Part shown: positions 41,889 through 61,345 of the stretch, piece by piece
Layout: each line of letters begins with the position of its first letter
Position numbering within the stretch: position 1 is the first letter of the stretch
IMG/VR virus record: IMGVR_UViG_3300050821_007134
Span: 32,001-96,000 of that record
Strand: one strand, 5' to 3'
Source: a virus
DNA length: 64,000 nt
Notes under the pieces: generated by a model
Seen by the model: the letters and a program-made list of their open reading frames with translations, nothing else
Told to the model about the DNA's origin: nothing
Database searches by the model: none
Position numbers and translations under genes: made by a program

Positions 41889-44663
41889 TTAAGCGGCGCT
41901 CTGTACTTGCGATACGTTAATGGTAATCGGTACGAAGTAGATAGCGGTTGCAAGCTTGATTTCGACTGCAACGTCCATTTCAGGACCATTGACGCTGACT
42001 TTGGGATTTTTGAACCCGAGAGGAGCATCTGTGCTGCCTGCGATTAACTTTAATCGTTTGTATCCATCCATTTTTTGAGCTAAGAAGCTCAAAGCGGTAG
42101 CGGCGTCGACATCGGCCAAGCTCTTACCAACAAAGGATGCTTGGAAGCTTGCGGCGAGATCGAGGGCCAAAATATCCGAAGCGTACACGGCTTGGATGCT
42201 GTTATAAACGAAATTGGCGTCAAAGGCATAAGTCGTTTGGTCACTAACCCAACGAACTCCAGCGGTATCTTTGGTCCAAAATAATAGACCAGCATCGAGT
42301 GCATCTTCAACATCACCAGGGCTACCCGAGTCAAATCCTGAAGGATCAAGGTAACTGATAACGTTTGCGAATTTGTTAACGATGGCTTTATAGAAACCGC
42401 CCGTTTGCATACCGGCAGCAACAACTGCTTGGTACCAAGGGAGGAAGCTTGTGATAACGCCTTGCGAGTTAACTTGCGAAGGCCTTTGGAAAGCCAAAGA
42501 ACAACGGTACTGAGCAATCCCTTGAGATTTTTGTTTCGTCTGAGCATAAGTTCCCCAGAAAGAAAGGATTGCGATACGATTCTTTTTAAGCTTCGGTGTG
42601 CTGAATTGGATACAATGAGCCTTAGCAGCTGCATGGATTGCATCAATGGTGTAGGTCGAAGATGAATCGGTTAATCCGTCAGCGATATCAGCGCTTGCAT
42701 CTCTTGAGAAGAGAGGAACGATAATGTTAACATTCAATCCAGCCAATGCGTTGATTGCAGCGATAACTTGAGCAGCAGAAGTTCCACCTTTGGTTCCACC
42801 AGATAAGAAAATTGGAGCTGCATTTGGATTGGGTAATCCAGAAGAAGCTTGAGGTGCGAAATTCAATGCGCGAGAAGTACTCATACCTTGTTCGAAAGAG
42901 AACAGAGCATCTTTAATTCTTCCAGGCTGTTCACCAGCTCCGCTTGAAGCGATACCGGCTGCGGTAACTGCATCTAAAGCAGAAGGAGGTAATTGCTGAG
43001 CAGAAGGAGAAGCTGAAGCTGAATATCCAGATTGAGAATTGATAAAAGCAGCAATGTCGGCAACCGTTCTGTATTGGCTAAGAGCGATACTTAAGTTAGC
43101 ACCTGATCCGCCACTAACAGTAGTCGTCAACATTTGACTTACGGGATTAATTGTTAAAGTTGCGGTCGTACCTTGGTAACCAACGTTTAAGGCAATTTGA
43201 GTTGCAACGTCGATTGTTTCGCTTAAGTTAATGTCGGCGCGGTTGATTTGAACTTCAACAGAAGCCTCTTGAGCGGCAACATTTAAACTGTCAGAAAGAC
43301 CTAAAGCGGCTAAATCTCCAGGAGTAGAGTCGAACAATTCAAAACTTCTTGCATCTCCCCTTCGATAAGCGGTAGCATCTATGGCCATGGTAAGAGCAAT
43401 ACTATTTGGTGCAGCGCCAGGTGATGCAGAGATTCCAGAGGGAAGTAACAAATTGAGTTCAGTTATTAACTGAGCCTGATTTGAGTGGTTAGCTCCGTTG
43501 ATTACTCCAGGAGGGAAATTTGTGATTGAAGTTCCAGGACTCACACCAACGTTACCATTGATAATAGTACCGCTAGATGCGCTACCAGTTACGGCTGAAG
43601 CACCTAAGAGACCAAACGTCCCAGCGTAATTTAATAGAGGAGCTTGCTGTGCGTTGACGACAGTGGGTGCGCTTAATGTGACGGCTCCAGTAAGAGCAAT
43701 TAAACTGCCGTTTACAACGGTTCCTAATGTGTCAGTGATTGATGCTTGAGCGATAACGTTACCTTGGAAAGTACCAGCGAATGAAGAATCAAGAGTTGCA
43801 GAACTTCCGACGAGCCAATAAACGTTTTTGGCTAAAGCGCCACCAGTAAAGTTAATAACAGGAGTACCGCTTGAACCAGTCACTAAAGTACTTGCAGTTT
43901 TGATTACGAATACGTCAGTTGAAGAACCGCTAAAAGTAAGAGGTCCGCCTGCATCTAAGGAAGCGGCGCCCGTGCTATAATAACCAGCGGTTAATGTTTG
44001 ACCATCGAGAACAGCGGGAATTGAAACATATCCGCCATGACCAGATAAACTTGTGTAAGCGGCCTGAGCAGCTGATTGAGCTGAAGCGGCTTCGCTTGGA
44101 CTAACTGGACCAGAAGAGCTGCTACTAAGAGTGATAACATTGGCTGCTCCACCGTTTAATCGAAGTGTAAAAGAAGCGCCGTCTAAAGCTGCACCGAATG
44201 CAGGGATAGTTCCACCGGAAAGGGTAGGAGGAGCTTCGGTAGCGATCGAAGTAACTTGATATCTGTATTGGTTTCCAGGAATGCCGAAATTTTGATCAGA
44301 AAAAAGTCCATAGTTAGTGTCAACAGCGGCAGAAGCCTTTGCACTCGTATTTGTTTTTACGATGTAGATTAAATTTGCAGACCCAGTGATATCAGCATCA
44401 GCTGAAGGAGCAGATAATGCTCTCATAGCATCAACGATTGGACCGCTAAGGTATTGTTGTTGAACTTTATCCAATTGATCTGGAGTAAATGAATTGCTGC
44501 TCAAAGGATTAAGATCACTGAAAACATCTCCACCATCGGCTTCACCGATTATGACTACGTTACCAGAAGATCCGATACCAACAGGTTGGCTTTGAACAAC
44601 GATGTTAGGATACGCTCCAGGGATATTGGTATTAATGAAACTTGTTGCTAGTCTTTGAGACAT
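41889..44663 (-). CDS. Contractile tail sheath with inserted DUF3494-like domain
   Basis: N-terminal IPGAY..IIGEADGG; FLSGGTKG; C-terminal FVGK...YFVPITI; insert at aa ~186-393. Confidence 0.92.
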   Translation of the reverse strand: MSQRLATSFINTNIPGAYPNIVVQSQPVGIGSSGNVVIIGEADGGDVFSDLNPLSSNSFTPDQLDKVQQQYLSGPIVDAMRALSAPSADADITGSANLIYIVKTNTSAKASAAVDTNYGLFSDQNFGIPGNQYRYQVTSIATEAPPTLSGGTIPAFGAALDGASFTLRLNGGAANVITLSSSSSGPVSPSEAASAQSAAQAAYTSLSGHGGYVSIPAVLDGQTLTAGYYSTGAASLDAGGPLTFSGSSTDVFVIKTASTLVTGSSGTPVINFTGGALAKNVYWLVGSSATLDSSFAGTFQGNVIAQASITDTLGTVVNGSLIALTGAVTLSAPTVVNAQQAPLLNYAGTFGLLGASAVTGSASSGTIINGNVGVSPGTSITNFPPGVINGANHSNQAQLITELNLLLPSGISASPGAAPNSIALTMAIDATAYRRGDARSFELFDSTPGDLAALGLSDSLNVAAQEASVEVQINRADINLSETIDVATQIALNVGYQGTTATLTINPVSQMLTTTVSGGSGANLSIALSQYRTVADIAAFINSQSGYSASASPSAQQLPPSALDAVTAAGIASSGAGEQPGRIKDALFSFEQGMSTSRALNFAPQASSGLPNPNAAPIFLSGGTKGGTSAAQVIAAINALAGLNVNIIVPLFSRDASADIADGLTDSSSTYTIDAIHAAAKAHCIQFSTPKLKKNRIAILSFWGTYAQTKQKSQGIAQYRCSLAFQRPSQVNSQGVITSFLPWYQAVVAAGMQTGGFYKAIVNKFANVISYLDPSGFDSGSPGDVEDALDAGLLFWTKDTAGVRWVSDQTTYAFDANFVYNSIQAVYASDILALDLAASFQASFVGKSLADVDAATALSFLAQKMDGYKRLKLIAGSTDAPLGFKNPKVSVNGPEMDVAVEIKLATAIYFVPITINVSQVQSAA

Positions 44664-44981: not shown

Positions 44982-45845
44982 TTAACTCTTTTTTAAAATA
45001 TCAGATTTCTTGATTTCTAAAAATTTAGCCAGTTTGGCCACACCTGTATTTTTCCCCGCGATAGCTTCGGATTTATCCATCCAATTCTTCTCGGCCTGTG
45101 ATCTAGGTAACGTAGTACCTTCGCCTTTTGCTTCAGAATTACCTGGAGCTTGTTTTGAAACTCCCATATCATCTGACTTCTGTACGTTCGAAGGAGGAGG
45201 AGTCGCAGACGGTTGTCCAATACTTTGAGCACCCTGAGCAATTTTAGCTGGTGTGATTGCTCCGCTAGCGGCAGCATTTGCAAAGTTGGCGCCGAAGTCT
45301 TTCTTCAACTCGGCCTTTTCCATTGGTTCATGTCTATATGTGTCAGAAGCATGAACTATTTCGTGGCTGTGTAAATTCTTAATTCCAATATTTCGAGCAT
45401 GTTCGGATACTTGATTTGGTGAAGCTTCGTGGGTGTGATATCCGTGTTCTTTCATGCTGTGGTGAACTTTATCAACTAAATGCTGTCTTACGTGTTCACC
45501 GAATTTATTTTTGCTTGATTTTTCAAGCTCTTCGGACTTTCTTACTTGGCCTTCCATTCCATATTTCTTGGTATTGTAAGGTCGAGCGCCGGGGGCCGCA
45601 TTATTGCCTTCGGCATTTTCTTTTGGATTTGTTCTAGGGTCTTGTTGTTCCCTAACGCGTCTTTTTCCCACGATATCTTCTCTATCGAGTTCTTCTTGGT
45701 GTCTGTGGGGAGCCTGAGTACCTAATTTCTTAGAATTCTCAGATTCATATTTCTTCAAAGCTGGGAAATTCTTAATAAGTTCAGTGACCTTAGCTGCTAC
45801 TGCTTCGGCTGCCTGTTTTGCTGTATAACGCTTTTCTTGTGCCAT
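44982..45845 (-). CDS. Low-complexity late protein, putative internal head protein
   Basis: Many [LIMV]xK[SA][ED] motifs; late motif at 45869-45875. Confidence 0.65.
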   Translation of the reverse strand: MAQEKRYTAKQAAEAVAAKVTELIKNFPALKKYESENSKKLGTQAPHRHQEELDREDIVGKRRVREQQDPRTNPKENAEGNNAAPGARPYNTKKYGMEGQVRKSEELEKSSKNKFGEHVRQHLVDKVHHSMKEHGYHTHEASPNQVSEHARNIGIKNLHSHEIVHASDTYRHEPMEKAELKKDFGANFANAAASGAITPAKIAQGAQSIGQPSATPPPSNVQKSDDMGVSKQAPGNSEAKGEGTTLPRSQAEKNWMDKSEAIAGKNTGVAKLAKFLEIKKSDILKKS

Positions 45846-45879
45846 TATTGAACCTCTTTATACCACTGTAAGATTAGTA

Positions 45880-46242
45880 TTATGACTTACACTTGGCCAT
45901 AAAATCTCTTAGTTTTCGAGCACTTGCATGTTTTACGTCTTTAAAGTCCTCGGATTTAAACATTCCTGGAGACTTTGGGGTTTTCGATATAGTACTTTGC
46001 TCGCCCGATTTCATTGGATTAGCCACGGCTGTCGGAGTTGGCTTAGGTGAAAGAATTTGTGCTTCAGATTTAAAAATCTCTTGCATGAATTCTTCAGCTT
46101 TTTCAAGACCTTGTGACTTTTTCATCCTATGGAATATGAAGTTAGCCAGAGCCCATTTAGGTTCTCCGCCACTTTTACCGGCAGCTTCTTTAGCTTCCGA
46201 CCATTTCTTTTCATCTTTCGGGGTCTTTACAAATCCTGGCAT
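45880..46242 (-). CDS. Late protein, putative internal head protein
   Basis: MKKSQ, LEKAE, IFKSE, MFKSE; AATCTTA 5 nt before ATG. Confidence 0.65.
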   Translation of the reverse strand: MPGFVKTPKDEKKWSEAKEAAGKSGGEPKWALANFIFHRMKKSQGLEKAEEFMQEIFKSEAQILSPKPTPTAVANPMKSGEQSTISKTPKSPGMFKSEDFKDVKHASARKLRDFMAKCKS

Positions 46243-46263
46243 GACTATAAGATTCCTACGATA

Positions 46264-47292
46264 TTATTCATTTTCATCTTCTGGGTCGGTGGAATCGTCG
46301 CCATTTTCATTATCTGTATACCAAATTTCATTGGCTTTATCGATAAAAGCTGGGGAATCTTCATTAGATAGGATTTTGATCCCTCCGAGGAATCCTTTGG
46401 ATGTTTTCTCTTTTAACGCAACGCTTTCAATAAATCTTCGCGGTGACTTGACCCAGCTGTTCTCTACTTGGCCAGTGATTGTGATGTATCTTCGAAAAAC
46501 TTCTTCACCTTCGACGCCGCCGTAATTGCTATCTTCCTGAAGGTCTGAACTGCTCAGAAGACTTTCCGTGAATCCGGAGGCCTCTAATAAGCTTTCTCTA
46601 TAACGCATTATACTATACATTGCGATTGACCAAAGCCAAAGTAGGTTTTGGGGATCTCCATGCGCATGACAGCCAATGGTGTAGCTTTCTTGAAAAAATG
46701 AGTGTTCAACTCTAGCCTTATATACTTGAAATTGTGGAACAATTCCGTATTTACTCGCATTGAGTTTTGTATCGGCTTCGATTAGGATACCAGCTTCAGT
46801 AATTTCCAGGATACCGTAACCGTTCCCGGTCGCAGGGTCAACAAGGATCATTCCCGGCGCAATCCCGTCGCTTCCCGGCGCATTCCCAGGGATCGCCAGT
46901 TCACCAGTTGATTGGTCATATGAAAGCGGGACGAAAGGCTTAACCACGTAGGGAATAGGCTTCCCAATAGTGTTTGGCATTAAGAGCACTGTCTCAGTGG
47001 ACTGGTCGGCCATGGTCTTCATGTCTTGTTTTTCAGGGCTATTTCCCATGGATATCGTTATGCAGGGCGTCTTATCTTTATCTTTTCTAAGTGCCATGTA
47101 AAATTCTATTTTGTTATTTGCGAACCACTCTTTACAGGCATCGATTTGTTTTTGGCCATATTTGTCTTTTAGATATGGGCTTGTGATTAAATCTTCAAAC
47201 ATGTGGTCAATAAGCCACGGATTCTTGCGCATGTCTTCGATGCCAAGCTCGATAGCTGTTTTTATTATCATGTCACCTTGAAAAATTCCCAT
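46264..47292 (-). CDS. Putative tail terminator/completion protein
   Basis: Position upstream of sheath; YTIGCHAHGD..LLWL pattern. Confidence 0.55.
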   Translation of the reverse strand: MGIFQGDMIIKTAIELGIEDMRKNPWLIDHMFEDLITSPYLKDKYGQKQIDACKEWFANNKIEFYMALRKDKDKTPCITISMGNSPEKQDMKTMADQSTETVLLMPNTIGKPIPYVVKPFVPLSYDQSTGELAIPGNAPGSDGIAPGMILVDPATGNGYGILEITEAGILIEADTKLNASKYGIVPQFQVYKARVEHSFFQESYTIGCHAHGDPQNLLWLWSIAMYSIMRYRESLLEASGFTESLLSSSDLQEDSNYGGVEGEEVFRRYITITGQVENSWVKSPRRFIESVALKEKTSKGFLGGIKILSNEDSPAFIDKANEIWYTDNENGDDSTDPEDENE

Positions 47293-47298
47293 AAACCC

Positions 47299-48054
47299 TT
47301 AATATTTTGCCAAAATTTGCGGCAATACGTTTGTTTCCCATTCTTTTAAAGCCCATTCATAGGCTTTTTCAAAAAAATGTTGTGCGTCGTATCCGGGGTG
47401 AATCCACTTACCTTCACTGGCCGGGCCACTACTTACAGTTCGAAAAGTCATAATGTCTCTTTGAACTTTTCCAGTAATACGATTTTTCTTTTGATATATC
47501 GTAACTCTAGCCAAAGCATCCGTTGTTGCCCTGCTTGTAGGCGGAGCGCTTGGGATACTGAATGAATGAAGTTTTCCAAGTCTTGGATTGCCACCAGATC
47601 CCGTTTCTATTTTCTTATAAGGGATTTTTCTGGCCTTCAATTCAGTTCTAATTTGGCTGACCAAACTTTGAGCGTATGAATTCATGGTAGATGGTGCCCT
47701 ACTATGCTCAAAAGGGATGGCCCTACTTTTATTACCTGTTCTAGGATTTACAGGAGCATCTTTTAAAAGAGATTCCTTCATATCCTTTCCGGGAGTAATA
47801 CCTTCTTCAATCCAAAGTGCGCTTTCATCAATGGTCAAAAGATGAACATGTGGCGCGATTTCTTGAGTCTTAAATCCTTTTTGGAATTGACTCAGCGTGG
47901 TATGAAGTTTATCTGCGGCCATTTCATCAATTTTTGCAGTAGTCATGGCGGCCAGACCATCGACGGCTTCTAAGATGTCCTTTTCAATTTCTTCTTTTGC
48001 TTCTTTAAATGCGCCAGCAATTGCCGAAGCATCAATATGTATTTTAAAGCTCAT
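47299..48054 (-). CDS. Putative neck/tail completion protein
   Basis: WIEEG...IPF.H...TFRTVSS...WIHPG, as in SPO1/Twort-like neck proteins. Confidence 0.65.
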   Translation of the reverse strand: MSFKIHIDASAIAGAFKEAKEEIEKDILEAVDGLAAMTTAKIDEMAADKLHTTLSQFQKGFKTQEIAPHVHLLTIDESALWIEEGITPGKDMKESLLKDAPVNPRTGNKSRAIPFEHSRAPSTMNSYAQSLVSQIRTELKARKIPYKKIETGSGGNPRLGKLHSFSIPSAPPTSRATTDALARVTIYQKKNRITGKVQRDIMTFRTVSSGPASEGKWIHPGYDAQHFFEKAYEWALKEWETNVLPQILAKY

Positions 48055-50228
48055 TAGTTATTCTCTTGAGCCGCTGCCTTAACAGGAACTCCGCTAGGAC
48101 CCATCACTACACCCTTTTTGCGATCAATCCATCGGGTCTTCCCGGTCTTTTGATCTATCGTCTTTTGTTGACCTTTCAGGTTTATAGAACCTGGAGTCAA
48201 AGGAGTTCTTGGAGTGTGCTTGGTCGTTGCTTTAGTGGGTAATTTTCCCAGGCCACTACCGCCTGGCTTACTTTCTTTTGGGGGCTCGTTAGCTGCACCC
48301 TCCTTAGGAGCAGCCGACTTATCTTTGTCTTCTTTTTTAGGAGGAAATCCACCTTTTTCTTTTCCAGGAGGACCTTCTTTGCCTTCTTTTTTCTCAGGAG
48401 CTTTACCGTCCTTCTTTGGAGGAAAGCCACCTTTTTCTTTTCCGGGTTCTTGTCCAGCTTCTTTGGCTGGATGACTACCACAAGTAGGACAAGGATGTTC
48501 TTCTTGGCCTGGAATTGGTTCTCCGGGCTGGCCTTGAGCACCTTGTTGTTCATTTGGAAGTTGTTCAGTACCATTTGAAATACCAAGCAATTTGGACATT
48601 TCAATCATGGCGCGAAGCATTGCGATACATGAAGAATAAAGCTCAGGGGATTGAGCCTGAGATTGTTCCAAAATTTGTTTGTTATTTTTAAACCCTTGAA
48701 GAGCTTGGCCGATCATCTGTTTTATTTGCTCTTTTTGAGCATCTTCGGCGCCGCCTTCTAAACCATCCTGCATTACTGATTGCATTGGAGGCTCTTCTTC
48801 CTGACCAGGAGGAAGTTCTTCTTGCTCTTGTCCAGGAATTTGTTGGTCGGAAGCCTGATCGGTAGGAGAAGCTTGACCCATCATATCATCTTGGGTATCT
48901 CCAGCATTCGGTCCTTCAAGATTTACGCCACCTTCAGGTCCGCCAGGCATACCAGTGTCTCCGGGAACATTCTGTTCCTTGAAACCATCTGGACGACTAA
49001 CATTCCCTTCCATCTCACTACCGACGGGCATAGCGCCACTATCAATATTGTTCATCTGTTCTTGCTGAACTTGTGGATCGGCAGGGGGAGTATCAACGTT
49101 CTCTTGAATTACTTCTTCAGCTTCTTCTTGAGGCTTGCCACAAGTCGGGCAATTTTGCGCGTGAGCTTCTTGTGGAGGCGCTTGGCCATTTTCAGGAGCT
49201 TCTTTAGGAGCTTCTTTGCCTTTTTCATCTTTCACTTCCTTTTTAGGTTTTTCTTTAGTATCCATATCACCTTCTGCCTTTTTAATAGGAGTTTTGAATT
49301 CATTTTTAGAGGGATCTTTACCGGTATCTTCGGCTTTTTCCCTAGGAGTAGACATTTCTTTTCCACTCGCATGTTTATTGGCTTGACCGTCTTCTTCTTC
49401 CTTTTGTTTTTCTTTTTTCTTATCAGGAAGAGCATTAGGTTGGCCCTGTTCGCCTTTGTTTTTATCTGGAAGTGGCCTGTCTTCAGCTAAGGCAACGTCG
49501 GGTCTAGTATCGCTTTTTGGCTCTTGTTGAGCAACTTTGGCGGATGCTTCTTGATTGACTTTTGCCGTAGCTTGTTCTGGAGATTCCTGAGTTAATGCAC
49601 TATCTTGTGCAACTTGAGAAGACTTTTCTGCCGATGTTCCTGCCGGTGTTTTGGCGGATGCCTTGGCGGATGTTTCGTCACTAGCAGTCTCAGAAGGAGT
49701 CTCACCAGTTTTCTCTTTTTGAATTTGATCTTTCTGCCATGAGTCTTGTTTGAAACCTTTATCATCTTCGGGCTTTAAATATGCTTCACCAAGCTTCTGT
49801 TCTTCTTCAGATCCTTGTCCTTGTGATAATCGATCTTGTGTGGCTTGGATGTCCTTATCAACGGAATCATCGTACATGACCACTTGATTTTTACCACGAA
49901 ATTTAGCAACCATCAGAGATTTTCCAGCTTGTGGAAGATCTTGGCCTACACCAACTGACATAGTCAGATTGGTTGCGAATTCATAATCGCGTCTTAATTC
50001 TTCGATATCTTGAACAGCTTCAGCCGGTAGAGAGAATAAACCTTCGTCTCCGCCCCCGCTGATGACCTGTCCATTATGTTCTTCAACCCATTTCTTAACA
50101 ACTTCATGGCCTAAACCAATGCGACTGGAGACTTCGCTAAGCGCGCCTGGATCGTTAGCCAAAATGGCACGACCTACAAGTCTACCGGCATTATCGCCAT
50201 CGTATGCTAAGAAAATCTGGTTAGTCAC
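48054..50228 (-). CDS. mCpol (minimal Cas10-like nucleotide cyclase) domain fused to a long disordered region
   Basis: aa 1-120: FLAYDGDNAGR...GQVISGGGDEG...TMSVGVG....A...L.VAKFRGKNQV; remainder rich in E/Q/P/K. Confidence 0.8.
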   Translation of the reverse strand: MTNQIFLAYDGDNAGRLVGRAILANDPGALSEVSSRIGLGHEVVKKWVEEHNGQVISGGGDEGLFSLPAEAVQDIEELRRDYEFATNLTMSVGVGQDLPQAGKSLMVAKFRGKNQVVMYDDSVDKDIQATQDRLSQGQGSEEEQKLGEAYLKPEDDKGFKQDSWQKDQIQKEKTGETPSETASDETSAKASAKTPAGTSAEKSSQVAQDSALTQESPEQATAKVNQEASAKVAQQEPKSDTRPDVALAEDRPLPDKNKGEQGQPNALPDKKKEKQKEEEDGQANKHASGKEMSTPREKAEDTGKDPSKNEFKTPIKKAEGDMDTKEKPKKEVKDEKGKEAPKEAPENGQAPPQEAHAQNCPTCGKPQEEAEEVIQENVDTPPADPQVQQEQMNNIDSGAMPVGSEMEGNVSRPDGFKEQNVPGDTGMPGGPEGGVNLEGPNAGDTQDDMMGQASPTDQASDQQIPGQEQEELPPGQEEEPPMQSVMQDGLEGGAEDAQKEQIKQMIGQALQGFKNNKQILEQSQAQSPELYSSCIAMLRAMIEMSKLLGISNGTEQLPNEQQGAQGQPGEPIPGQEEHPCPTCGSHPAKEAGQEPGKEKGGFPPKKDGKAPEKKEGKEGPPGKEKGGFPPKKEDKDKSAAPKEGAANEPPKESKPGGSGLGKLPTKATTKHTPRTPLTPGSINLKGQQKTIDQKTGKTRWIDRKKGVVMGPSGVPVKAAAQENN

Positions 50229-51183
50229 GTTTTTTCCTTAAAGTATCTAGGAGCATTTCAATGTTTTCTGCATCCCAGCCTTTACCAAATCTGACTTTTA
50301 TTCCCTGTTCGGTCTTTTTAATGAAGACCTTCTTTTCTCGATCCTCACCAAGACATATGCACCCGGAAAAAATAGATCCGTCAAAAATGTGCTTACCGCA
50401 ATCCGGGCATTCAACAGTTTCGCCTTTAGCCATCTCAATTGAGAATTCATTCTTTTTACTCTTCCTAAGTTCTATGAACTTTTTTAATTTTTCGTGACCC
50501 TTTTTCATGGGCTCAACAAATTCTGGTTCTTTTCCTGTTACAACAGATTCTACGACCTTCATACCGTTAGTCATTCCTCGAAAGTATTGATCGGACTGGG
50601 GTGTAGATTCCTGTTGAATTTTGGTTATTTCTGAAACTTTGTCTGTAAGTTTCAATAGAACCAATTTATCTACAGCTTCTCTCTCCATGAGTTTCTTATC
50701 GATAACTTTACCGATTAAATCATGAAGTGCTATTCTCTCATCGACTAATTTTTGAACCTTTGCGTCAATGTCAGTGTTACCACTTGACATATTCTCTGAC
50801 AATTGGTTAACGTCATAAAGTTCGAAAGCACTCATTATGACAAGTCCCACTCCTGGTATAGCGCGATTGACAAACTGCACTATTAGTTTAGAACCTTGTC
50901 TGATTTCTCCGCTATAAACGTCTCTTTCATGTTTTTGAGCATTTAGTATAGCGCCGCCTTCCACTGGAAGGTCGAATTCTTTATTTTCACCGATGGCCAT
51001 TGGTGTTAGTTCTTTGATGACTAAAGCCATTACAGTTCTTGGAACAATTTGTAAGGCGGTCCTTAATTCTTCATGATCGACAACGGTACGAGTTCCGGGC
51101 TTATAAAGCTCGAATTTCTGCAAAGACTCCATGTAGTCCTTGCCCAAGGTCTTTTTCAAGAAGAAGTTAGCGCCTGAGGCCAT
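50221..51183 (-). CDS. Late protein with C-terminal Zn ribbon
   Basis: CPDCG...GCIC. Confidence 0.7.
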   Translation of the reverse strand: MASGANFFLKKTLGKDYMESLQKFELYKPGTRTVVDHEELRTALQIVPRTVMALVIKELTPMAIGENKEFDLPVEGGAILNAQKHERDVYSGEIRQGSKLIVQFVNRAIPGVGLVIMSAFELYDVNQLSENMSSGNTDIDAKVQKLVDERIALHDLIGKVIDKKLMEREAVDKLVLLKLTDKVSEITKIQQESTPQSDQYFRGMTNGMKVVESVVTGKEPEFVEPMKKGHEKLKKFIELRKSKKNEFSIEMAKGETVECPDCGKHIFDGSIFSGCICLGEDREKKVFIKKTEQGIKVRFGKGWDAENIEMLLDTLRKKRD

Positions 51184-51192
51184 TTTATTACC

Positions 51193-51633
51193 TTATCTCG
51201 ATGCTTCGAGTGATATGGCCGTATCGTCGTCAATTAAATAAACAAGCAGTGTAGCGCTGTCAGTAATTACTGAAATTTGTTCGCCAGCTGCCACATAGGT
51301 CCAAGCATTTGGAGTACATGCAATTCCTACGTGACCCGAGGCATCTACTGCACCAGCTGCCAATGCAGCGATGGTAAGATCTTCACCAAAAGTGACAGCA
51401 TGAACGGCAGCGCTATTATTGTAGATCGCCAAATTTCTTCCAGCGGAAGGAAGTGCGCGAGCGGTAGAAGCATCAGTTGTATAAGTCGTCGCATTGATAT
51501 TTAGTGGAAGTAATTTCCTTCCAACTTCGGCAACTTTCCTAGCTCCGGCCTTTTCACTGAAAGTCATGTTCTCGACGCTGGGTACGTCTGTGACTCGATA
51601 ACCTAATACTTTTCTTTTCTTTATTCCTGCCAT
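51193..51633 (-). CDS. Putative virion protein
   Basis: AAGGA SD; AATCTTC at 51667-51673. Confidence 0.65.
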   Translation of the reverse strand: MAGIKKRKVLGYRVTDVPSVENMTFSEKAGARKVAEVGRKLLPLNINATTYTTDASTARALPSAGRNLAIYNNSAAVHAVTFGEDLTIAALAAGAVDASGHVGIACTPNAWTYVAAGEQISVITDSATLLVYLIDDDTAISLEASR

Positions 51634-51674
51634 AAGTCCTTAACTTTCCTTTGTTTTATACTGATTGAAGATTA

Positions 51675-52601
51675 TTATTCGCCTTCTGTAATTGTGGACA
51701 TATCCACTGGTATCACGGGGTTAGCTGGGTCAATGGATTCAGTGGGCGCTTCCACGACTCTTCCAGGTGTCTTCGATTTGAGCTGATTGACTTGGTCACC
51801 CTTATTTTGATTGTGATAGATGTATTCCCGGACGATCTCAGCGTAGTAGGGCATTCTTTCGGGACTTCTGACGCCATTAGTCGTAACATTGGTGATTCGG
51901 ATTTCTTTGGGGAGGCTGACCACATACCAAAAAGCATTGTAGAGATATCTGATTGAATATATTCGGCCTTTTCCGGTATCTGGATCAATTCCTGGATTTT
52001 TTCCGCCTTTTTCCCAGCGAATGCTGCCTTCACTTGTGAGGCAAAAATCAACACCGAGTTTGTATTCAATATTACGGCTGTCGATTAAAAACTCAATACT
52101 TACAATAGGATACATCGGAATATTGTCCGCATCAGGGGTGTAATCCATTTTATGATATGTGGCTACTTTGGTGTCTGCCTTTGGATCGGCAACATAAAGT
52201 CTATCACCAGGGGCCAAATAAATTCTATCACCATTCGACATGTCGGGGGTTCCCGGAGCATTATAGAACCTAGGCAGGACCAAACGGCCAACGGCCACGT
52301 CTACGAACCCGCCATCACTTTTCTTCTTGTCTCGTTTGTCATCTGTCATGGTGGCCGAGAAAACTCCGCCACATTTGTAAATAAAGCCGTTTGAGGTAAT
52401 TGTGTCGACTCCGTCGCTTCTGCGGTAGTCACCCTTGTCTTTTTGACCAATAGGGCTAGGAATTGCCTTGTAATGGTTGAAATCAACGGCGAAGCTTGTG
52501 ACAAAAGCATCCTGTTTGGCCAGATCTAAAGAATGCTGGACGAAGGGACTTTCGCGTTGAATATCATCGACTTGTATGCCGACGGGTTTACGATCTGACA
52601 T
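51675..52601 (-). CDS. Putative head closure/neck protein
   Basis: GFIY...LAPGDRL...YSIRY..W.V pattern of SPO1-like neck proteins. Confidence 0.55.
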   Translation of the reverse strand: MSDRKPVGIQVDDIQRESPFVQHSLDLAKQDAFVTSFAVDFNHYKAIPSPIGQKDKGDYRRSDGVDTITSNGFIYKCGGVFSATMTDDKRDKKKSDGGFVDVAVGRLVLPRFYNAPGTPDMSNGDRIYLAPGDRLYVADPKADTKVATYHKMDYTPDADNIPMYPIVSIEFLIDSRNIEYKLGVDFCLTSEGSIRWEKGGKNPGIDPDTGKGRIYSIRYLYNAFWYVVSLPKEIRITNVTTNGVRSPERMPYYAEIVREYIYHNQNKGDQVNQLKSKTPGRVVEAPTESIDPANPVIPVDMSTITEGE

Positions 52602-52959
52602 TATTACATCCTGCTATGCTGCACATTTCGGCTATTTCTTCTAATTTCTTGTCTGTGTTAGAAAATGAATTAACCAGAGATTTTATCACTTCATTAAGTT
52701 CTAAATCTTTGGAGTACATTTTCATTTTATTTTTTACCTTTGCACCCATTATGCTACTGTTATGATTGACCTTTATATTGAATGTTCGGCTGATTCCAGT
52801 TTGGCAAAATCGTTCGATCTCATCCAAAAATTTCTCCAAGGAGGGATCGTTTGGCTCATAGTCTACTACGATCTGTTTTGAGCCCCTTATCTGTTCTTCC
52901 AGTGGCTTATTTATATCGTATTTGATTTCGTCTTCAGCTCGAATAATCTTTATACACAT
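52588..52959 (-). CDS. Hypothetical late protein
   Basis: Start revised to MCIKII. Confidence 0.6.
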   Translation of the reverse strand: MCIKIIRAEDEIKYDINKPLEEQIRGSKQIVVDYEPNDPSLEKFLDEIERFCQTGISRTFNIKVNHNSSIMGAKVKNKMKMYSKDLELNEVIKSLVNSFSNTDKKLEEIAEMCSIAGCNNVRS

Positions 52960-52960
52960 C

Positions 52961-53482
52961 TTATTTACCCGTAATTTTAACCTTTGACGCATTGCAAGAC
53001 ATTGCCTTCTCGGCAGTTGCCCCGGCCAGTGCCCGGCGGAATTCTTGCGGTGCAGTAACACCATCAATAACAATTGAATCTCTCTCGAAATGGCTCATTA
53101 CAGAGGCCACCTTAGCGTTATTTTTGGTAATGTGAAATTCCACCATGCTACCATTTTGGATAGAATAAATACCATGACCAGACTTCCTAAGATCCTCGCT
53201 CAACCAATGAGAATGTTCATCGACGATGGAAGAATCAGTCATTCCCTCGCTTTTCATCAAAGCTGGCTGAAAGTCTGGGTATTGTTTTCCAAGGTTGAAC
53301 TTTACAACAGCTGGATGACTCCCTGCGGCTAAAGCTTCTTCCCTGTATTTGCCTTTTGGTTTACCAATGGCAATCCAGAAACCTCCGCGAGTGCGGATCA
53401 TTTTAACTGGATGTTTGTCGAGCATACCAGCATCTTCTATATGTTCAATTTCTTTTTCAGTGAGAATTGGCTTGTCGCTCAT
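52961..53482 (-). CDS. Hypothetical late protein
   Basis: AAGGAG SD; LMKSE motif. Confidence 0.7.
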   Translation of the reverse strand: MSDKPILTEKEIEHIEDAGMLDKHPVKMIRTRGGFWIAIGKPKGKYREEALAAGSHPAVVKFNLGKQYPDFQPALMKSEGMTDSSIVDEHSHWLSEDLRKSGHGIYSIQNGSMVEFHITKNNAKVASVMSHFERDSIVIDGVTAPQEFRRALAGATAEKAMSCNASKVKITGK

Positions 53483-55005
53483 TTCTTAACTCCTTGATTA
53501 TAGGCATTATTTATTTTTATTACATGCCAGTGTTTACTAATGTCTTGTTTGTCGTGTTGGGCCTTATAAGTACCGCGAATTCCTTCTAACCATGCATATC
53601 CTATTTTCTGCGGATCGTTGCCAAAATGTTTTTCAAGTCTTTTCAAATGCTGCTTAGCAATAGTGTCTTCTAGGCCTGGATTGTCTCTCATGAAGTTTTG
53701 CAATTGGGGACCGCGAAGGATAGTGGCTTTTTGATATTTGTGCTTTAGTTCTGGATGAAGGCTTATTGTTTCTCGTATGATATTTGGCGTTAAAGCATAC
53801 TTACCGTATGCTTGTTCGCCAGAATGTAATCTCTTGTGATGTGTGTTCTTGCCGCCGCTACTTTCGACAGAAGCGATAGTTCTAAGCATGTGTTCTGGAC
53901 TGTAAGTGGGAGCCTTGAATGCCGGGGCTTGCATAACCTTTGGAGCCGCGTCTACACTTTGGGGAGCGGCGGGCTGACCAATTAAAGAAGAAGCGGCGAT
54001 CATTGCGCCTGCGGCTTTAGTCTTAAAGCTTTTTTCCATGTCTTCTGTAAATTCATATATGGTATTCCCGGCGCCTTTTTCAACACTAAGGTTATCGAAA
54101 TGGACTTCATCCGGAGATAGACCCTCCTTCTTTATTTGGTCATAAAGAGGCTTGTCGATTGTAACGTGTGTGAAATATTCTTTATATTGCACTCCGTCAA
54201 TAGTGTCATAGAATTTTTTGTATTCTGGAGGGCATCCGTCAATCATGAGCATGAAATAATCGGCATCGCTATAATCAGAATGATGAATTTTGGTATGGAA
54301 TCTTAAAGCATGAGGATCTGGTTTTGTAATTCCAAGTCGTTTGACTTTGGCTTTGATATCTTCGATATCCATCTTTTGTTTTTCGTCAAAAACCTTAAGA
54401 GACATATGAAGAGGAATATCATCCGTTAAGAATTTACGACCTTTGATGGTTACTTTGAAAAGTACATCTCCGCCAGATTTTGCTTTCTTTCGATATTCAT
54501 TGCAAACACCAGTTCCGATTTTTTCTCTTTTAGCAATATCGGGCTCGATAAGTTGATTGTTAATAGTCTGTTCGGGAGATCTCTGTACTCCACTTTGACC
54601 TTCGCCTTCAGCACCAGGATTTGATCGCATATCGCGATCTCCAGTTTCAACCTTTAGTACTTTGATGCCATAGGCAGCGAGTTCTTTAGCCCATTTGTCC
54701 TGCTCTTCTTTATGGCAAACTACGTAGGCAGAATCAATAAATTCCCTACTTTTTTGAATGATGACATGATCTGGGTATTTCATTGCAAAAAGTTCAACGG
54801 CTCCAGGAGGACTGGACGATTGATCTAAAATGATTTTACAATCAGATGGAATTTCCATGACAGGATTGTAAGTATCATTGTTTATGACAGTATCTCCGGC
54901 GCTACCACTAGGAGCAGACCCCGACTCAACGATATCGCTAAGTTCTTGAATAGAATCTTCCAATGTGCGTCTCATATGTTTATGCAGCATGATGCCACTT
55001 CCCAT
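53479..55005 (-). CDS. Multidomain protein: Acb1-like 2H phosphoesterase plus lytic transglycosylase
   Basis: LHMSL (H200) and YFTHVTI (H280); C-terminal IASVESSG...AYGKY...YAWLEG. Confidence 0.7.
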   Translation of the reverse strand: MGSGIMLHKHMRRTLEDSIQELSDIVESGSAPSGSAGDTVINNDTYNPVMEIPSDCKIILDQSSSPPGAVELFAMKYPDHVIIQKSREFIDSAYVVCHKEEQDKWAKELAAYGIKVLKVETGDRDMRSNPGAEGEGQSGVQRSPEQTINNQLIEPDIAKREKIGTGVCNEYRKKAKSGGDVLFKVTIKGRKFLTDDIPLHMSLKVFDEKQKMDIEDIKAKVKRLGITKPDPHALRFHTKIHHSDYSDADYFMLMIDGCPPEYKKFYDTIDGVQYKEYFTHVTIDKPLYDQIKKEGLSPDEVHFDNLSVEKGAGNTIYEFTEDMEKSFKTKAAGAMIAASSLIGQPAAPQSVDAAPKVMQAPAFKAPTYSPEHMLRTIASVESSGGKNTHHKRLHSGEQAYGKYALTPNIIRETISLHPELKHKYQKATILRGPQLQNFMRDNPGLEDTIAKQHLKRLEKHFGNDPQKIGYAWLEGIRGTYKAQHDKQDISKHWHVIKINNAYNQGVKK

Positions 55006-56200
55006 GTACTATGTTTTCGGGCAGTAGACCAGCTTTTTGATCTGCGTAAACTGTCTTTTGAGGATTTTTTCTATTTTCTTCGCCATGTTTGCCAAAATTG
55101 ACGGTATTATTTTGTCCCATCGTTTCTGTGGCGAGTGCCTTTTGTGCTTCAGGAGAATACATTTGTTTGTGAGTTAAGAATGCAGAATGTTCACCCTTAG
55201 GACCAAAAGTATGTCCTTCTTTGGCATGACCAAAATAATCGTGTACTATTCTGAATACGTCATTGGCAAGTAGTGGGCTGCCTTCATGGAGAATCTTTGT
55301 AGGTGTCAATAGAGGATGATCCTTCGGAGCACTTCCTTCAGAACCAAATCCACCTTCTGTTGGGAAAAACCAGAGATGATTGTTATTATGGATATCGTGC
55401 ATTACGTCTTTTGAATTTTTATAAGGGTTGGCCATTCCCGGTTTGATCTTTGAAATCTTCAATCCACTATTCTTAATATGGTTGAACTGATCCATAGTTT
55501 CATTGATCAGGGCGCCATATGCTTTCTGAACAGCTGGGTCTCCGGGACTGTGCTTCATTCCTTCATATGAACTAGCTATTTGTTTACCGTGTTCTGGATT
55601 AACATTGACAGCTGGTGTAGGAGATAGTTTTATCCCTTTACTTTTGGCATAACTCTCCGCAACTTGTTTTACTTTATTGTCAGGTTTCAGACCAATACTA
55701 GGAGTAGGTTGAGCAGCAGATTGAATTGGTTTTTCTTCGGCCTTTTTCATATCTTCATTGAAGTTATGAGTAAATCGTCCGGCGCCACCAGGAAGAGTTG
55801 TATAAAAATCTTTTGGCTGTTGAGCATGCCAGGTAGTTCCTTGTCCCATTACTTTCTGCCCAGCTTTTTCTCCATGATGATAACGCATTTCATGTTTCTT
55901 TCCAGTAGAATAAATGGAACTCTCTTGACCCAGATTAGCGGCTAATGAATGAAGTTGTTCGGCTTGTTGGGGAGAAATTTTGTAAATGATTATTGATTTT
56001 TCTGGTTTTCCATAATGACCCATAACTTCATGGGCGTCGTACTGAGCACCCTTAAGATGTTTCAAAACAGCTGCATGATCTAGATTTAACTTGTTTTGTT
56101 CTGGGTATATTGGATTGTCAGCGGACATAAGGAAATGCGGTCCGGAAATGCTTTTCCGGTGATCTTTCATCGCATTTAATATGCCTCTATCAACGCCCAT
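54980..56200 (-). CDS. Multidomain protein: SAM-lyase/DUF3293-like domain plus HDxxGH domain
   Basis: LMSADNP, VMGHYGKPEKSI, LAANLGQESSIY, DFYT; then FRIVHDYFGH..GE...ATETMGQN. Confidence 0.6.
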   Translation of the reverse strand: MGVDRGILNAMKDHRKSISGPHFLMSADNPIYPEQNKLNLDHAAVLKHLKGAQYDAHEVMGHYGKPEKSIIIYKISPQQAEQLHSLAANLGQESSIYSTGKKHEMRYHHGEKAGQKVMGQGTTWHAQQPKDFYTTLPGGAGRFTHNFNEDMKKAEEKPIQSAAQPTPSIGLKPDNKVKQVAESYAKSKGIKLSPTPAVNVNPEHGKQIASSYEGMKHSPGDPAVQKAYGALINETMDQFNHIKNSGLKISKIKPGMANPYKNSKDVMHDIHNNNHLWFFPTEGGFGSEGSAPKDHPLLTPTKILHEGSPLLANDVFRIVHDYFGHAKEGHTFGPKGEHSAFLTHKQMYSPEAQKALATETMGQNNTVNFGKHGEENRKNPQKTVYADQKAGLLPENIVHGKWHHAA

Positions 56201-56208
56201 TTTACACC

Positions 56209-57039
56209 TTAGAAGTTATCTATGAAATATTTTGAACTAAAGATCCCGCGAAGCTTTCTAACAAGCTCATCTCTTTGGGCCATTAATTCTTCTATTCTCA
56301 GCTGATAAATTCTAGGGCCGGGGCCACTAGAAGATTGAGAAATACCATCCTGAGACAAGCTTTGAGAAGTATGAATGAACAATGGAGCAAGCATACTCAA
56401 GATATGGATCGCAGTAATAACACCAACCAATTCGTTTACTGGAACGGGAACAAGGCCTTCTTTATTTGAAAGACCAGCCGTGTATTTAATTTGCCAGTAA
56501 GCGGGAACCCAGTTGAGTCCGTCTATGACAGTCAAAAAGGCGATACCGGCGTTACCGACAGCACCTTGGACAGAATTGACTCCATAGGCGGCCAACAGTG
56601 GAATGACGTTGATCAAATTTTTGGAAAAATTCGCAGCTTCAATCCACGTAGGGGGGATTTCGAAAATTAAATTATTGTCTGAACTTACAATTGCAAGATG
56701 TTCCAAACTTACAATTGGTCCGTGTTCCGCTCGGAGATGGATGTAAGTTTTGTACAAATTGTAATCAAATGGCAATTTTTCCTTAAAGGCTTCCCTGGTA
56801 ATTGTTCGGCCTAAAAGTAATTCAGCGTCGTTCATGGCGACCATTATATAGTCTTTCATCTCATCATCGGTAATAAAATCGCCATTTTGCATTCGAAGGG
56901 GGATTCCCTTCAACCAACGAGAAATAACCTGCTGTGGCTGCAATAGGGGCTCACAGCGCCTAAGTAGGCCAGAGGTTTGACTGGCATGTACGGGGTACAT
57001 TGCCGTTTCATATGTTTTTGTTAAGGTATAATCTCCCAT
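56209..57039 (-). CDS. Head-tail adaptor/neck protein
   Basis: Position after capsid; P.YWQIKYTAG, SQSLSQDGISQS. Confidence 0.65.
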   Translation of the reverse strand: MGDYTLTKTYETAMYPVHASQTSGLLRRCEPLLQPQQVISRWLKGIPLRMQNGDFITDDEMKDYIMVAMNDAELLLGRTITREAFKEKLPFDYNLYKTYIHLRAEHGPIVSLEHLAIVSSDNNLIFEIPPTWIEAANFSKNLINVIPLLAAYGVNSVQGAVGNAGIAFLTVIDGLNWVPAYWQIKYTAGLSNKEGLVPVPVNELVGVITAIHILSMLAPLFIHTSQSLSQDGISQSSSGPGPRIYQLRIEELMAQRDELVRKLRGIFSSKYFIDNF

Positions 57040-57513
57040 TTAGCAGCTCCCGTCATTCATGGGCTCGACGGAAATCATGTTTAAAACGCTAAAACGTCTT
57101 ATATTGCTTCCCTCGAATACTGCAAACTGGACATTTCCTGAATTCGGTGTTTTACTGGGAGGAATGGTGACTTTCCAGATCGACGCGTCATTTGGATCGG
57201 CCTGTACAGCGGTTAAATTGATCACCTGAGCGTCATCTATGGACGGGAAGGTGACCTGGATGGAGGCTGGCTGATTACCGCCGCCAACGCCTACCATGTA
57301 ACGTAGACCTATTACGCTGGCCTGGGCCGGGGGAACGTTGAAAAATCCGCCAATAAGGGCTGCGCCGGAGATGTTAGCTAAAGTGACTTGATCTAGATCA
57401 ACTATTTGAAAATACAGGGTATTTGGGTCTCCAGCTCGAACCGCCCACTGAGCAGCGTAGGAAAACTGGTTTACAGTCGCGAAATTTGTGATTACTCGTG
57501 CGGAAAGTCTCAT
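57040..57513 (-). CDS. Putative virion protein
   Basis: Late motif at 57549-57555. Confidence 0.65.
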   Translation of the reverse strand: MRLSARVITNFATVNQFSYAAQWAVRAGDPNTLYFQIVDLDQVTLANISGAALIGGFFNVPPAQASVIGLRYMVGVGGGNQPASIQVTFPSIDDAQVINLTAVQADPNDASIWKVTIPPSKTPNSGNVQFAVFEGSNIRRFSVLNMISVEPMNDGSC

Positions 57514-57626
57514 TGCAATTTACTCCAATTTGAGGTATATCTTTCACTTAAGATTGGCACGAAAACATTTGGGAAAGCGGAATAGGCTGTTTTTCCAAGC
57601 ATTTACACATATTTAAGGAGAAAAAC

Positions 57627-58256: not shown

Positions 58257-58290
58257 AAATAAAAAGGCCCTAGGGCGAAACCCTAGGGCC
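58255..58290 (-). terminator. Rho-independent terminator
   Basis: GGCCCTAGGG-TTTCG-CCCTAGGGCC-TTTTTATTTTT. Confidence 0.85.
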
Positions 58291-59914: not shown

Positions 59915-61315
59915 TTATGATCCACCAGGGGTCAATTGACCAGTGATGTTCTCAAGAAGAACGTTTTTGCGAGGTTGGAAAACAGCGAGAGACAAGAATC
60001 TGAAATGTGCTTCGGGGAGCGACAAGTCATTGATTGCAAGTTTCAATTTGCTGTAAGGAGCCAATTGAGCGATGCTCATTGTGTTTCCTTGAACGAGGAA
60101 CCCTGTAACAGATCCTTCAGATCGGTTACCGAGGTCGGTAAATACTGGGTTACCAATCCCTTGAGAGATCTTACCGATGAACTTAGCAGAAGCGGCAGAT
60201 CCACCAGCACTTGAACGATAAACGTTGTAGTACTGAGCGCCAGCAACAGCGGTAATGGTAACGGTAACTTTATCACCGGCCAAAGCAACTGCTTGCGAAG
60301 CGGAAGGGGAGGGGAGCGACTCACCACGGATACTTACGGCGGTTACATAATAAACGTATGTAGCAGCTTGGAGTAATGATCCGGCAGCACCGGCATCAGC
60401 AAGAGCAGGAGCAGCGGGTTGATTTGGGCTGCCTGCGCGAGCGCGTGCGGGGCGGGTTTTACCAGAGAGGAAACGAGAAGCTTCTAGCGAAACAATGGCA
60501 CTTGATGTCCATTGAGTTCGTAAATGAGCGCCTGAGGCCTCTTGAGGAGAACCGGCGAGCATAATACGTTCTTTCGCATGAGCGATTTTGTTATATTGAC
60601 TGAGGGTGATAGGATCGAGAACGAGTCTGTCAGCAGCACCCATGTTCATTGCTGAACGAACCGAGCTATCTTCGATGATGGACTGTGCTAATGCACCGCC
60701 AACAGAGAGGATAACAGTTTGGTCTGAACCGTACTCAGCAAACATCAAGTCTTGAGTGTTTGATTGAGCATCGGATTGACGAACTTGTTGATCGAGACCG
60801 ATCATGTTTGGAACTTTTGCGACTGCAAGAGGGTTACCATCGAACACCCCAGCATTGGAGAAATCTGATTGTCCTCGGAAGAGGTCAAATTCGATATCGC
60901 CAGCAAGCTTCATAGCTGCGTCAGCTGAAGCTCTATCTTCGGCTTTAACACCGTCGAAAGCACCAATCATATTGGCAGCAACAGTGACTCGACGAGTCGT
61001 GCTGTAATATGACATGGGGACTACTGCACGAACATAATTCGTGGTGTCTTCTTCGCCGATTCCGCCTTCAAATTGAGCAGAACCTCCGAAAATACCATAG
61101 TCAAGTTGACGGTTAAACTGGTGAAGCTGAGACTTAACGTCTTTGCTTGGCAGCATTTTTTGCAACTTGATATGACTGTCATCGAATGTAACATTATGCA
61201 TTACGGGGGAAAGATCTTCCACCATAAGTGCAGCACCTTGAGCCAATTGGCCGGGAGCCGCGTTATAGCTACCTGCTTCTAGGGCTTTCATAAGTGACTG
61301 AAGTTGTTCGATCAT
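59915..61315 (-). CDS. Major capsid protein (SPO1/Twort-like) with FN3-like insertion
   Basis: GAALMVEDL, F.EGG, IEFDLF.G; YVYYVTAVS..GES.PS...YNVYR insert; P.K.VL..NI. Confidence 0.9.
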   Translation of the reverse strand: MIEQLQSLMKALEAGSYNAAPGQLAQGAALMVEDLSPVMHNVTFDDSHIKLQKMLPSKDVKSQLHQFNRQLDYGIFGGSAQFEGGIGEEDTTNYVRAVVPMSYYSTTRRVTVAANMIGAFDGVKAEDRASADAAMKLAGDIEFDLFRGQSDFSNAGVFDGNPLAVAKVPNMIGLDQQVRQSDAQSNTQDLMFAEYGSDQTVILSVGGALAQSIIEDSSVRSAMNMGAADRLVLDPITLSQYNKIAHAKERIMLAGSPQEASGAHLRTQWTSSAIVSLEASRFLSGKTRPARARAGSPNQPAAPALADAGAAGSLLQAATYVYYVTAVSIRGESLPSPSASQAVALAGDKVTVTITAVAGAQYYNVYRSSAGGSAASAKFIGKISQGIGNPVFTDLGNRSEGSVTGFLVQGNTMSIAQLAPYSKLKLAINDLSLPEAHFRFLSLAVFQPRKNVLLENITGQLTPGGS

Positions 61316-61345
61316 ATTTTTCTCCTTGTTTCCTTATGCCTCTGT

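Follow-up and report, generated by a model that had tools for sequence, protein, structure and literature searches.

The stretch of DNA analyzed here (hereafter the window) comprises 64,000 nucleotides, bases 32001–96000 of the 171,073-bp IMG/VR virus record IMGVR_UViG_3300050821_007134, which originates from soil and is rated as complete by CheckV. Its capsid, sheath, and tube genes identify the virus as a myovirus, and the nearest cultured phage is Myxococcus phage Mx1, with capsid proteins that are 52% identical. No RNA data sets are listed with the stretch, and its sole full match is a soil metagenome, from which the sequence may itself derive. The minus strand of the window carries an open reading frame (ORF) of 724 amino acids (aa), here called P0001, whose N-terminus an earlier note on this DNA had read as a minimal Cas10-like cyclase (mCpol); the interval flagged there, 49869–50228, corresponds to residues 1–120. 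An AAGGA Shine-Dalgarno sequence lies six bases 5' of the GTG start codon at 50228, the start of the ORF overlaps the upstream stop by 8 nt, and its stop overlaps the downstream ATG by 1 nt. The four N-terminal motifs named in that note are all present: YDGDNAGR at residues 9–16, GGGDEG at 58–63, TMSVGVG at 89–95, and AKFRGKN at 108–114. The features that bear on the cyclase assignment are listed below, with residue equivalences given to KpOptS, the OptS/mCpol enzyme of a Panoptes system.

48054..50228, minus strand: whole ORF P0001, 724 aa, GTG start, with 86 close homologue clusters
49779..50228, minus strand: ordered N-terminal module, aa 1–150, consisting of the mCpol palm and two conserved C-terminal helices (from Pfam, PDB, AlphaFold2, and the full-length model)
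50193..50201, minus strand: D10-G11-D12, with D10 aligned to KpOptS D6 and D[GA]D found in 209 of 216 relatives
50043..50054, minus strand: G59-G60-D61-E62 hairpin, with D61 aligned to KpOptS D57

In the Panoptes literature, mCpol serves the host as an enzyme of guard-type immunity, and defence systems are the only setting in which it has been described so far. The assignment of the viral domain to this family, with its catalytic acidic residues retained, holds up by Pfam, PDB, and fold matches, and both D10 and D61 are in place. The Pfam mCpol family (PF18182) covers residues 6–119 along the complete profile (positions 1–114 of 114) with 51.5 bits (E 1.6e-13) against a curated cut-off of 26.4 bits, and the domain scores 56.2 bits in a six-frame search of the genome. 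A phmmer search against PDB sequences recovers the Panoptes OptS/mCpol entries 9nwn and 9mnr over their full length at E about 3e-7. The AlphaFold2 model of the domain, built from an alignment of 108 relatives, has a predicted local distance difference test (pLDDT) score of 96.5, and its best Foldseek match is KpOptS (9mnr/9pd0), with template-modeling (TM) scores of 0.79–0.80 normalized to the query and 0.88–0.90 to the target, a root-mean-square deviation of 1.5–1.8 Å over 118 columns, and 25% identity. GGDEF domains (TM about 0.68), class III cyclases, and Csm1 follow in the Foldseek results, matches in BFVD include phage GGDEF proteins (Bacillus phages SP-15 and G gp350), and the ESM Atlas neighbors of the domain are stand-alone bacterial mCpol clusters.

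Comparison with the related palm families gives the same placement: the fold matches mCpol, the Cas10 palm 2 profile stays just below its cut-off (26.4 bits against 27 in Pfam; E 2.5e-5 for Cas10 in PADLOC), and the GGDEF profile (PF00990) gives no match. Cas10 palm 2 and GGDEF domains share with the viral domain an RRM (RNA recognition motif)-like palm, a GGD(D/E) hairpin, and two-metal chemistry. However, Cas10 combines two palms with HD and zinc-finger/D4 domains, whereas here there is a single palm of about 120 aa with neither an HD domain nor a second palm, and compared with the diguanylate cyclases of the GGDEF family (about 160 aa), the domain is about 40 residues smaller and has no I-site. 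With the Panoptes OptS structures (KpOptS 9mnr, 9pd0, and 9nwn), it shares the Pfam family, the fold, both catalytic aspartates, the pairing of Ser34 with Ser30, and the size of a minimal catalytic unit; it differs in its low identity to OptS (about 25%), in keeping the canonical GGDE hairpin that is largely lost in OptS, in being fused to a carrier of about 570 aa, and in being encoded in a structural operon. By profile, fold, and catalytic residues, the phage protein is a member of the mCpol family, and it is not a Panoptes system, a Cas10, or a GGDEF protein.

The active site can be followed across the relatives in some depth. In KpOptS, D6 and D57 bind metal and are required for activity (PMC12657218), and the equivalent positions D10 and D61 are at least 90% conserved across 108 relatives. 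Of 216 relatives, 198 have GGDE at the hairpin and no fewer than 11 others have GGDQ, so that GGD[EQ] is present in at least 209. Near-invariance across diverged relatives, more than 200 in all, holds for both metal-binding aspartates, the GG hairpin, and K109/G112/K113. In the HMMER alignment, Ser34 falls on the KpOptS specificity residue Ser30 and Gly38 on Asn34; the near-invariance of Ser34 suggests that one uniform product is made family-wide. Judged from its sequence, this is a genuine mCpol domain with an intact active site, predicted to be catalytically competent.

Natural variants of the gene bear on whether that activity matters to the phage. The Mx1 orthologue (WNM70340.1, 468 aa) occupies the same operon place and retains a fold-level match, the three-helix module of the tail (E 2e-5), and a related C-terminal motif, while its catalytic residues are lost, with SWSIDH in place of YDGDNA and LGAVG in place of GGGDE; its Pfam mCpol score of 21 bits is under the cut-off, and it has no zinc ribbons. 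At similar capsid divergence, domain identity is 52% for the active copy of locus L020 and 23% for this dead copy. Since the aspartates are conserved and the dead Mx1 copy is far more diverged at similar capsid distance, we conclude from these alignments that mCpol catalysis is under purifying selection. Two further relatives, P0221 and P0222 (76% identical), begin at the zinc ribbons and sit in the same slot, between the genes for the 320-aa and 251-aa types of neighbor, and no mCpol sequence is found within 4 kb at these loci. In some other relatives, a GNAT acetyltransferase stands in front of mCpol. Dead (Mx1), absent (P0221/P0222), and GNAT-fused forms all occur at a conserved carrier; these variants show that mCpol is an add-on to it, an accessory head, and that the carrier has a conserved role of its own.

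The retention of the gene in Mx1 after loss of its catalytic residues, the existence of mCpol-less variants, and the dimers and tetramers formed by OptS (PMC12657218) could also point to a purely structural or assembly factor, in which the mCpol fold serves as an oligomerization or nucleotide-binding module and catalysis is irrelevant. However, such a protein would not be expected to keep its aspartates, GG hairpin, and K109/G112/K113 near-invariant in more than 200 relatives, nor would one expect a dead copy to have outpaced the active ones so clearly in divergence when capsid distances are equal, and we regard this explanation as quite improbable. Mx1 also encodes a GGDEF-domain protein of 243 aa whose GGDEF motif is intact (WNM70324.1, L004 17173–17904), located two genes downstream of the “prohead protease” (1,239 aa). 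This protein may functionally replace the dead mCpol; a PF00990 search of the whole 171 kb finds no GGDEF gene in the window phage. A related-locus search of IMG/VR with the Mx1 GGDEF protein and the Mx1 mCpol orthologue returned no relatives of either, and the pattern of a dead mCpol together with a GGDEF gene is therefore seen in one phage of that kind, Mx1, set against the window phage.

The earlier note had taken the domain for a repurposing by this one phage, and here the broader survey disagrees. A word-indexed search yields the 86 close clusters, with proteins of 417–756 aa whose N-terminal domains are 45–88% identical, many of them on contigs of 155–177 kb. An exhaustive search of representatives extends the family to at least 872 clusters (at 50% identity) with E ≤1e-3, of which 579 have E ≤1e-10. 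The mCpol domain lies within the first 30 residues in 193 of 216 relatives, and the median protein length is 514 aa. Among 185,579 prokaryotic species (one genome each), a single match was found, on an 8-kb contig of a “Deltaproteobacteria” metagenome-assembled genome (MAG), and the two distant members that were looked up both lie in phage-like contexts. This MAG match and the relatedness to Mx1 make Myxococcota candidate hosts. This family size, the near absence from cellular genomes, and the fixed synteny described below speak against a one-off event. We also weighed the possibility that the gene was acquired recently, by horizontal transfer from a Panoptes locus of a host, and rejected it on synteny, family size, and the 25% identity to OptS. 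In two relatives, P0119 and P0098, the mCpol query matches two separate stretches, which may represent tandem mCpol domains.

The setting of the gene is as conserved as the domain. That it lies inside the structural operon, as the earlier note had it, is confirmed: it belongs to a long late unit between capsid and sheath, with the following features.

59915..61315, minus strand: major capsid protein, 52% identical to the Mx1 capsid protein
58266..58290, minus strand: the sole strong same-strand intrinsic terminator from capsid to sheath (terminator scan)
50221..51183, minus strand: upstream gene, 320 aa, with a zinc-ribbon-like CPDCG motif; found in synteny at every related locus and orthologous to an Mx1 gene
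47299..48054, minus strand: downstream 251-aa gene, phrog_16819, directly following the mCpol gene in the window and in most related loci
46264..47292, minus strand: 342-aa gene, tail-terminator family SP10_terminator (a weak match, E 0.009)
41889..44663, minus strand: tail sheath, 924 aa, with an inserted ice-binding-like domain

The gene order capsid ... 157-276-(406)-508-173-308-146-320-mCpol-251-342-(120)-sheath-tube (numbers being protein lengths) is shared without change by 16 IMG/VR loci and an NCBI contig of 172 kb (L002), and Mx1 has orthologues in the same order. The terminator at 58266..58290 follows the gene next after the capsid gene, and because no other strong terminator lies in between, the unit that includes the mCpol gene runs from 57513, at the 157-aa gene, to the sheath. 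Synteny extends in part to distant phages. In one of these (L008), a 251-type gene directly follows the mCpol gene; in another, on a 100-kb contig (L007), the gene is directly followed by a 1,029-aa ORF (11289–14378) and then by five more ORFs (386, 119, 119, 296, and 304 aa) before the 342-type gene, with the 251-type match in the fifth of the six. The six ORFs between mCpol and the 342-type gene in this phage indicate that the slot accepts further cargo genes. From sequence and synteny together, we consider the mCpol gene to be a core, syntenic gene of an Mx1-like myovirus lineage with genomes of about 150–177 kb, representing a virus-specific subfamily.

Panoptes mCpols are stand-alone proteins of about 120–150 aa, encoded with or fused to an effector (S-2TM-beta/OptE, CARF-TM, SAVED, or HEPN). 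The viral protein, in contrast, has 724 aa and no 2TM-beta, CARF, or SAVED effector nearby or genome-wide. The absence of a neighboring effector, already remarked on from the sequence, is upheld by Pfam and PADLOC, which find none in the ten flanking proteins, and no Cap15/OptE-type or SAVED domain is found in the whole 171-kb genome. Furthermore, Panoptes is encoded in cellular genomes, often beside CBASS, whereas the gene described here belongs to a complete virus genome. Since defence is the only role in which mCpol has been met so far, and since phages can themselves be carriers of defence systems (see the reference given in PMC12657218), one might think of a phage-carried defence against competing phages, formed by a Panoptes-like synthase and an unrecognized effector elsewhere in the genome. 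Against this stand the effector searches, the lack of PADLOC matches among the neighbors, the structural-operon location in lytic-type genomes, and the near absence from cells, the last two being unlike mobile defence cassettes; it is the least probable of the explanations considered here.

The remainder of the protein had been described as some 600 aa of disordered sequence with two CPTCG motifs. The two motifs are there, and the tail is rich in E, K, P, G, and Q; disorder alone, however, does not describe it, as the model and the relatives reveal ordered and conserved modules. In the full-length model, 356 residues have a pLDDT below 50, and the ordered parts are residues 1–150, 482–547, and about 687–702. 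The modules of the tail are as follows.

49137..49151, minus strand: first CPTCG, aa 360–364, from the sequence
48945..49025, minus strand: conserved short motif VGSEMEGNVSRPDGFKEQNVPGDTGM, aa 402–428, family consensus G.E.EGN.SRP.GF.QN.PGDMG
48588..48785, minus strand: three-helix module, aa 482–547, pLDDT about 90, in 177 of 217 relatives and matched in Mx1 (E 2e-5)
48477..48491, minus strand: second CPTCG, aa 580–584, from the sequence
48069..48236, minus strand: C-terminal motif, aa 665–720, in 34 relatives, with a modeled beta-hairpin at about 687–702

The C-terminal motif has the consensus TKxTTxHxxRTP..KGQQKxIDxxTGKTRWIDRKxGxV..PSGVPVK. PHROGs holds no family for the 724-aa protein, and an ESM Atlas feature search with residues 395–724 gave no usable match. 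A complex prediction for residues 480–724 with the 251-aa neighbor returned “no answer” (score 0.00), which is evidence neither for nor against an interaction. Within the tail there is also an internal repeat, KEKGGFPPKK(D/E)..K, in two copies at residues 597–632 (48320–48440), and GGFPPKK and SFPPKK recur near the C-termini of the relatives P0010, P0012, P0022, and P0027.

The zinc ribbons raise a further alternative. In most relatives, the mCpol domain is closely followed, at about residues 170–270, by four to six CxxC motifs amounting to two to three zinc ribbons, and a palm domain joined to a zinc ribbon is a primase-like combination. The protein could accordingly perform another kind of nucleotidyl transfer, together with its zinc ribbons, such as priming or extending nucleic acid, capping or protecting the genome end that enters first, or protein nucleotidylation. 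The base-recognition residues do differ from those of OptS, and the Cas10/GGDEF/Thg1 palm superfamily includes template-dependent 3'–5' polymerases (PMC12657218). However, the nearest matches in both sequence and structure are the cyclases OptS and GGDEF, and not Thg1 or primases. In addition, the protein in the window has only two CxxC motifs, 220 residues apart, and in some relatives the motifs come after the helix module; because their number and placement vary, a fixed palm–zinc unit is not conserved. We therefore consider such chemistry improbable.

A short linear motif offers a possible link between this protein and the virion. Head and neck proteins encoded on the minus strand at 44982–62781 carry 16 copies of the pattern [LIMVF]xK[AS]E in 5,363 aa (shuffles 1.2±1.1), against 14 copies in the 45,238 aa of the rest of the genome (shuffles 8.4±2.8), which makes the pattern about tenfold enriched in the head and neck set, with none in capsid, sheath, or tube. 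Seven of the 16 are in a scaffold-like 304-aa protein. In Mx1 (L004 13002–39282), the motif occurs three times in the scaffold, three times in a 1,479-aa “NUDIX” polyprotein, and twice in the mCpol orthologue, and it is missing from the capsid, sheath, tube, and replication genes. Two places in the mCpol protein are of interest in this respect.

49767..49784, minus strand: AYLKPE, aa 149–154, at the end of the conserved EExKLxEAYLxPE, with A149, Y150, and L151 at least 90% conserved; candidate protease site
49272..49286, minus strand: IKKAE, aa 315–319, the sole strict motif in the mCpol protein, located where disorder is predicted; candidate site for the prohead protease

Nine relatives are extended at the N-terminus, and in these the first residue of the motif is 8–20 positions ahead of mCpol; other members of the family have it at residues 147–168, just after the domain and aligned with AYLKPE, a position that reads AYLEKSE, AYLKKAE, or AYLNKSE in other relatives. 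The N-terminus of the capsid protein carries a related, conserved LMKALEAG. Known prohead-protease motifs are A/S/G-x-E in phiKZ-like phages and L/I-x-E in T4, and the hydrophobic-x-K-A/S-E pattern here differs from both. In the ejection proteins of SPN3US, the prohead protease cuts at Glu-ending motifs (PMC10052503). As in the SPN3US/phiKZ ejection proteins and the internal proteins of T4, a Glu-ending motif is found here in the scaffold and a subset of late proteins, where it brackets domains. The pattern is as expected for the sites of a Glu-specific prohead protease, and we regard the motifs as candidate sites. A prohead-protease homologue of 504 aa, with one LFKAE, is encoded on the plus strand at 62998–64000, running off the window, on the strand opposite to the capsid operon.

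One could nevertheless picture a late enzyme that stays in the cytoplasm and does not enter the virion, and whose cyclic nucleotide acts in the producing cell, where it could quiet guard effectors until lysis, time lysis or assembly, or exclude superinfection, with the carrier only localizing or regulating it. The conserved catalytic residues, the late operon, a genome with neither an effector nor the sponge and ring-nuclease families searched for, and the many relatives that lack the strict protease motif would all fit such an enzyme. On the other hand, a fixed place among connector genes with overlapping frames is typical of virion or assembly components, the persistence of the carrier where mCpol is absent (P0221/P0222) or dead (Mx1) indicates a role of its own in the structural module, and the set of proteins enriched in the motif is the one to which the scaffold belongs. 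A cytoplasmic enzyme is therefore a minority possibility, if a substantial one.

The reading we favor, with somewhat less than even confidence, is that an active cyclase is carried into the virion, or matured with it, to interfere with host nucleotide signaling. The idea in the earlier note that the phage makes decoy or antagonistic cyclic nucleotides is likewise a plausible one. The protein is a modular late protein: mCpol stands at its N-terminus, and disordered linkers join the zinc-ribbon motifs, the short linear motifs, the helix module, and the C-terminal beta-hairpin. The OptS active site spans two protomers, and its products are cyclic dinucleotides (PMC12657218); the mCpol of type II Panoptes makes cA3. 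By homology to OptS, two mCpol domains would pair, with D10 and D61 holding the metal and the triphosphate of one nucleoside triphosphate (NTP) and the partner protomer positioning the other nucleotide, giving a cyclic di- or oligonucleotide. In the prohead, which the protein might enter together with the scaffold and with further proteins of the operon that bear enzymes, cleavage by the prohead protease at sites of the hydrophobic-x-K-A/S-E type would free a cyclase of about 150 residues. Traveling with the DNA, this cyclase could then arrive in the next host; alternatively, it could be at work in the producing cell late in infection. In either case, it would perturb cyclic-nucleotide immune signaling, for example by re-supplying the inhibitory nucleotide that silences guards such as Panoptes. 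A more specific version, in which virions are pre-loaded with active mCpol that is freed by the protease, injected, and makes a guard-inhibiting nucleotide, so that nucleotide-depleting counter-defences escape the guard, seems doubtful to us; if true, it would add a third layer to the signaling arms race, a virus-made “all is well” signal. A Myxococcus xanthus island with CBASS and type III-B systems restricts phage Mx4 and not Mx1 (PMC11506125), and this escape of Mx1 is compatible with interference in nucleotide signaling, although it is not specific to it.

Several observations weigh against packaging of an active cyclase with an anti-guard role. The product of the cyclase cannot be predicted, because the adenine-contacting Asn34 of KpOptS is Gly38 here. 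Tad2-like and AcrIII-1-like proteins, the only sponge and ring-nuclease families searched for, were not found in the genome, and because neither is present, the anti-guard rationale lacks direct support. The strict motif occurs once in the protein and is missing from 150 of 245 relatives. Pfam finds no protease family in the prohead-protease homologue of either the window phage or Mx1, and because the family is not assigned, the role of the motif as a cleavage site is something we infer. Within the operon, the mCpol gene lies among neck and terminator genes and not beside portal or scaffold. Finally, the sole cultured relative, Mx1, has the inactive form, and a survey, largely by title, of papers naming both myxophages and Mx1 turned up no virion proteome for a member of the clade.

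The closest precedent in phages may be the “polyvalent” proteins, which are delivered with the DNA and can carry GGDEF or RelA/SpoT domains (PMC5512222). The mCpol protein resembles these in placing a non-morphogenetic enzyme domain in a late or packaging-module protein, as is evident from the capsid-to-sheath synteny and from the relatives that combine GNAT and mCpol, and in its proposed role of interfering with host nucleotide signaling. It differs from them in its mCpol domain, which is not reported there (PMC5512222), in usually having one enzymatic domain, in lacking a MuF or portal fusion, and in being a fixed syntenic gene and not variable cargo. Viral mCpols are not discussed in the Panoptes papers. 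We came across only one trace of them in print: Supplementary Table 3 of one of these papers (PMC12657218) has one viral row, Mx1 “mCpol+?”, that is not discussed, and a few “mCpol+disordered” MAG entries. What is new here is a conserved, apparently active, and virus-specific mCpol subfamily of hundreds of clusters, with a fixed place in the structural operon and no effector. It suggests that a large group of phages makes cyclic-nucleotide signal molecules itself. If phages do synthesize cyclic nucleotides, this would be a concrete candidate for an answer to inverse-signaling defences, and the active, dead, absent, and GNAT-fused forms provide a natural series in which the functions of the enzyme and of the carrier could be separated.

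Some other genes of the region deserve mention. The 508-aa neighbor (53479–55005) has no Pfam match at E ≤0.1 and resembles part of the 1,479-aa “NUDIX” polyprotein of Mx1; the sole SLT-family match of the whole genome lies away from it, at 164772–165059 of the genome. The 406-aa protein (54980–56200) matches a region of a 559-aa Mx1 protein (L001 11644–13323) that has a sub-threshold S-AdoMet-lyase/DUF3293 match (E 7.6e-5), and the operon position of its gene differs between the window phage and Mx1. The ice-binding-like domain inserted in the sheath is a DUF3494 domain (PF11999) at sheath residues 174–335, and a second copy of DUF3494 (PF11999) occupies two thirds of a 322-aa protein, on its C-terminal side; the gene for this protein directly follows the capsid gene, at 58339–59307.

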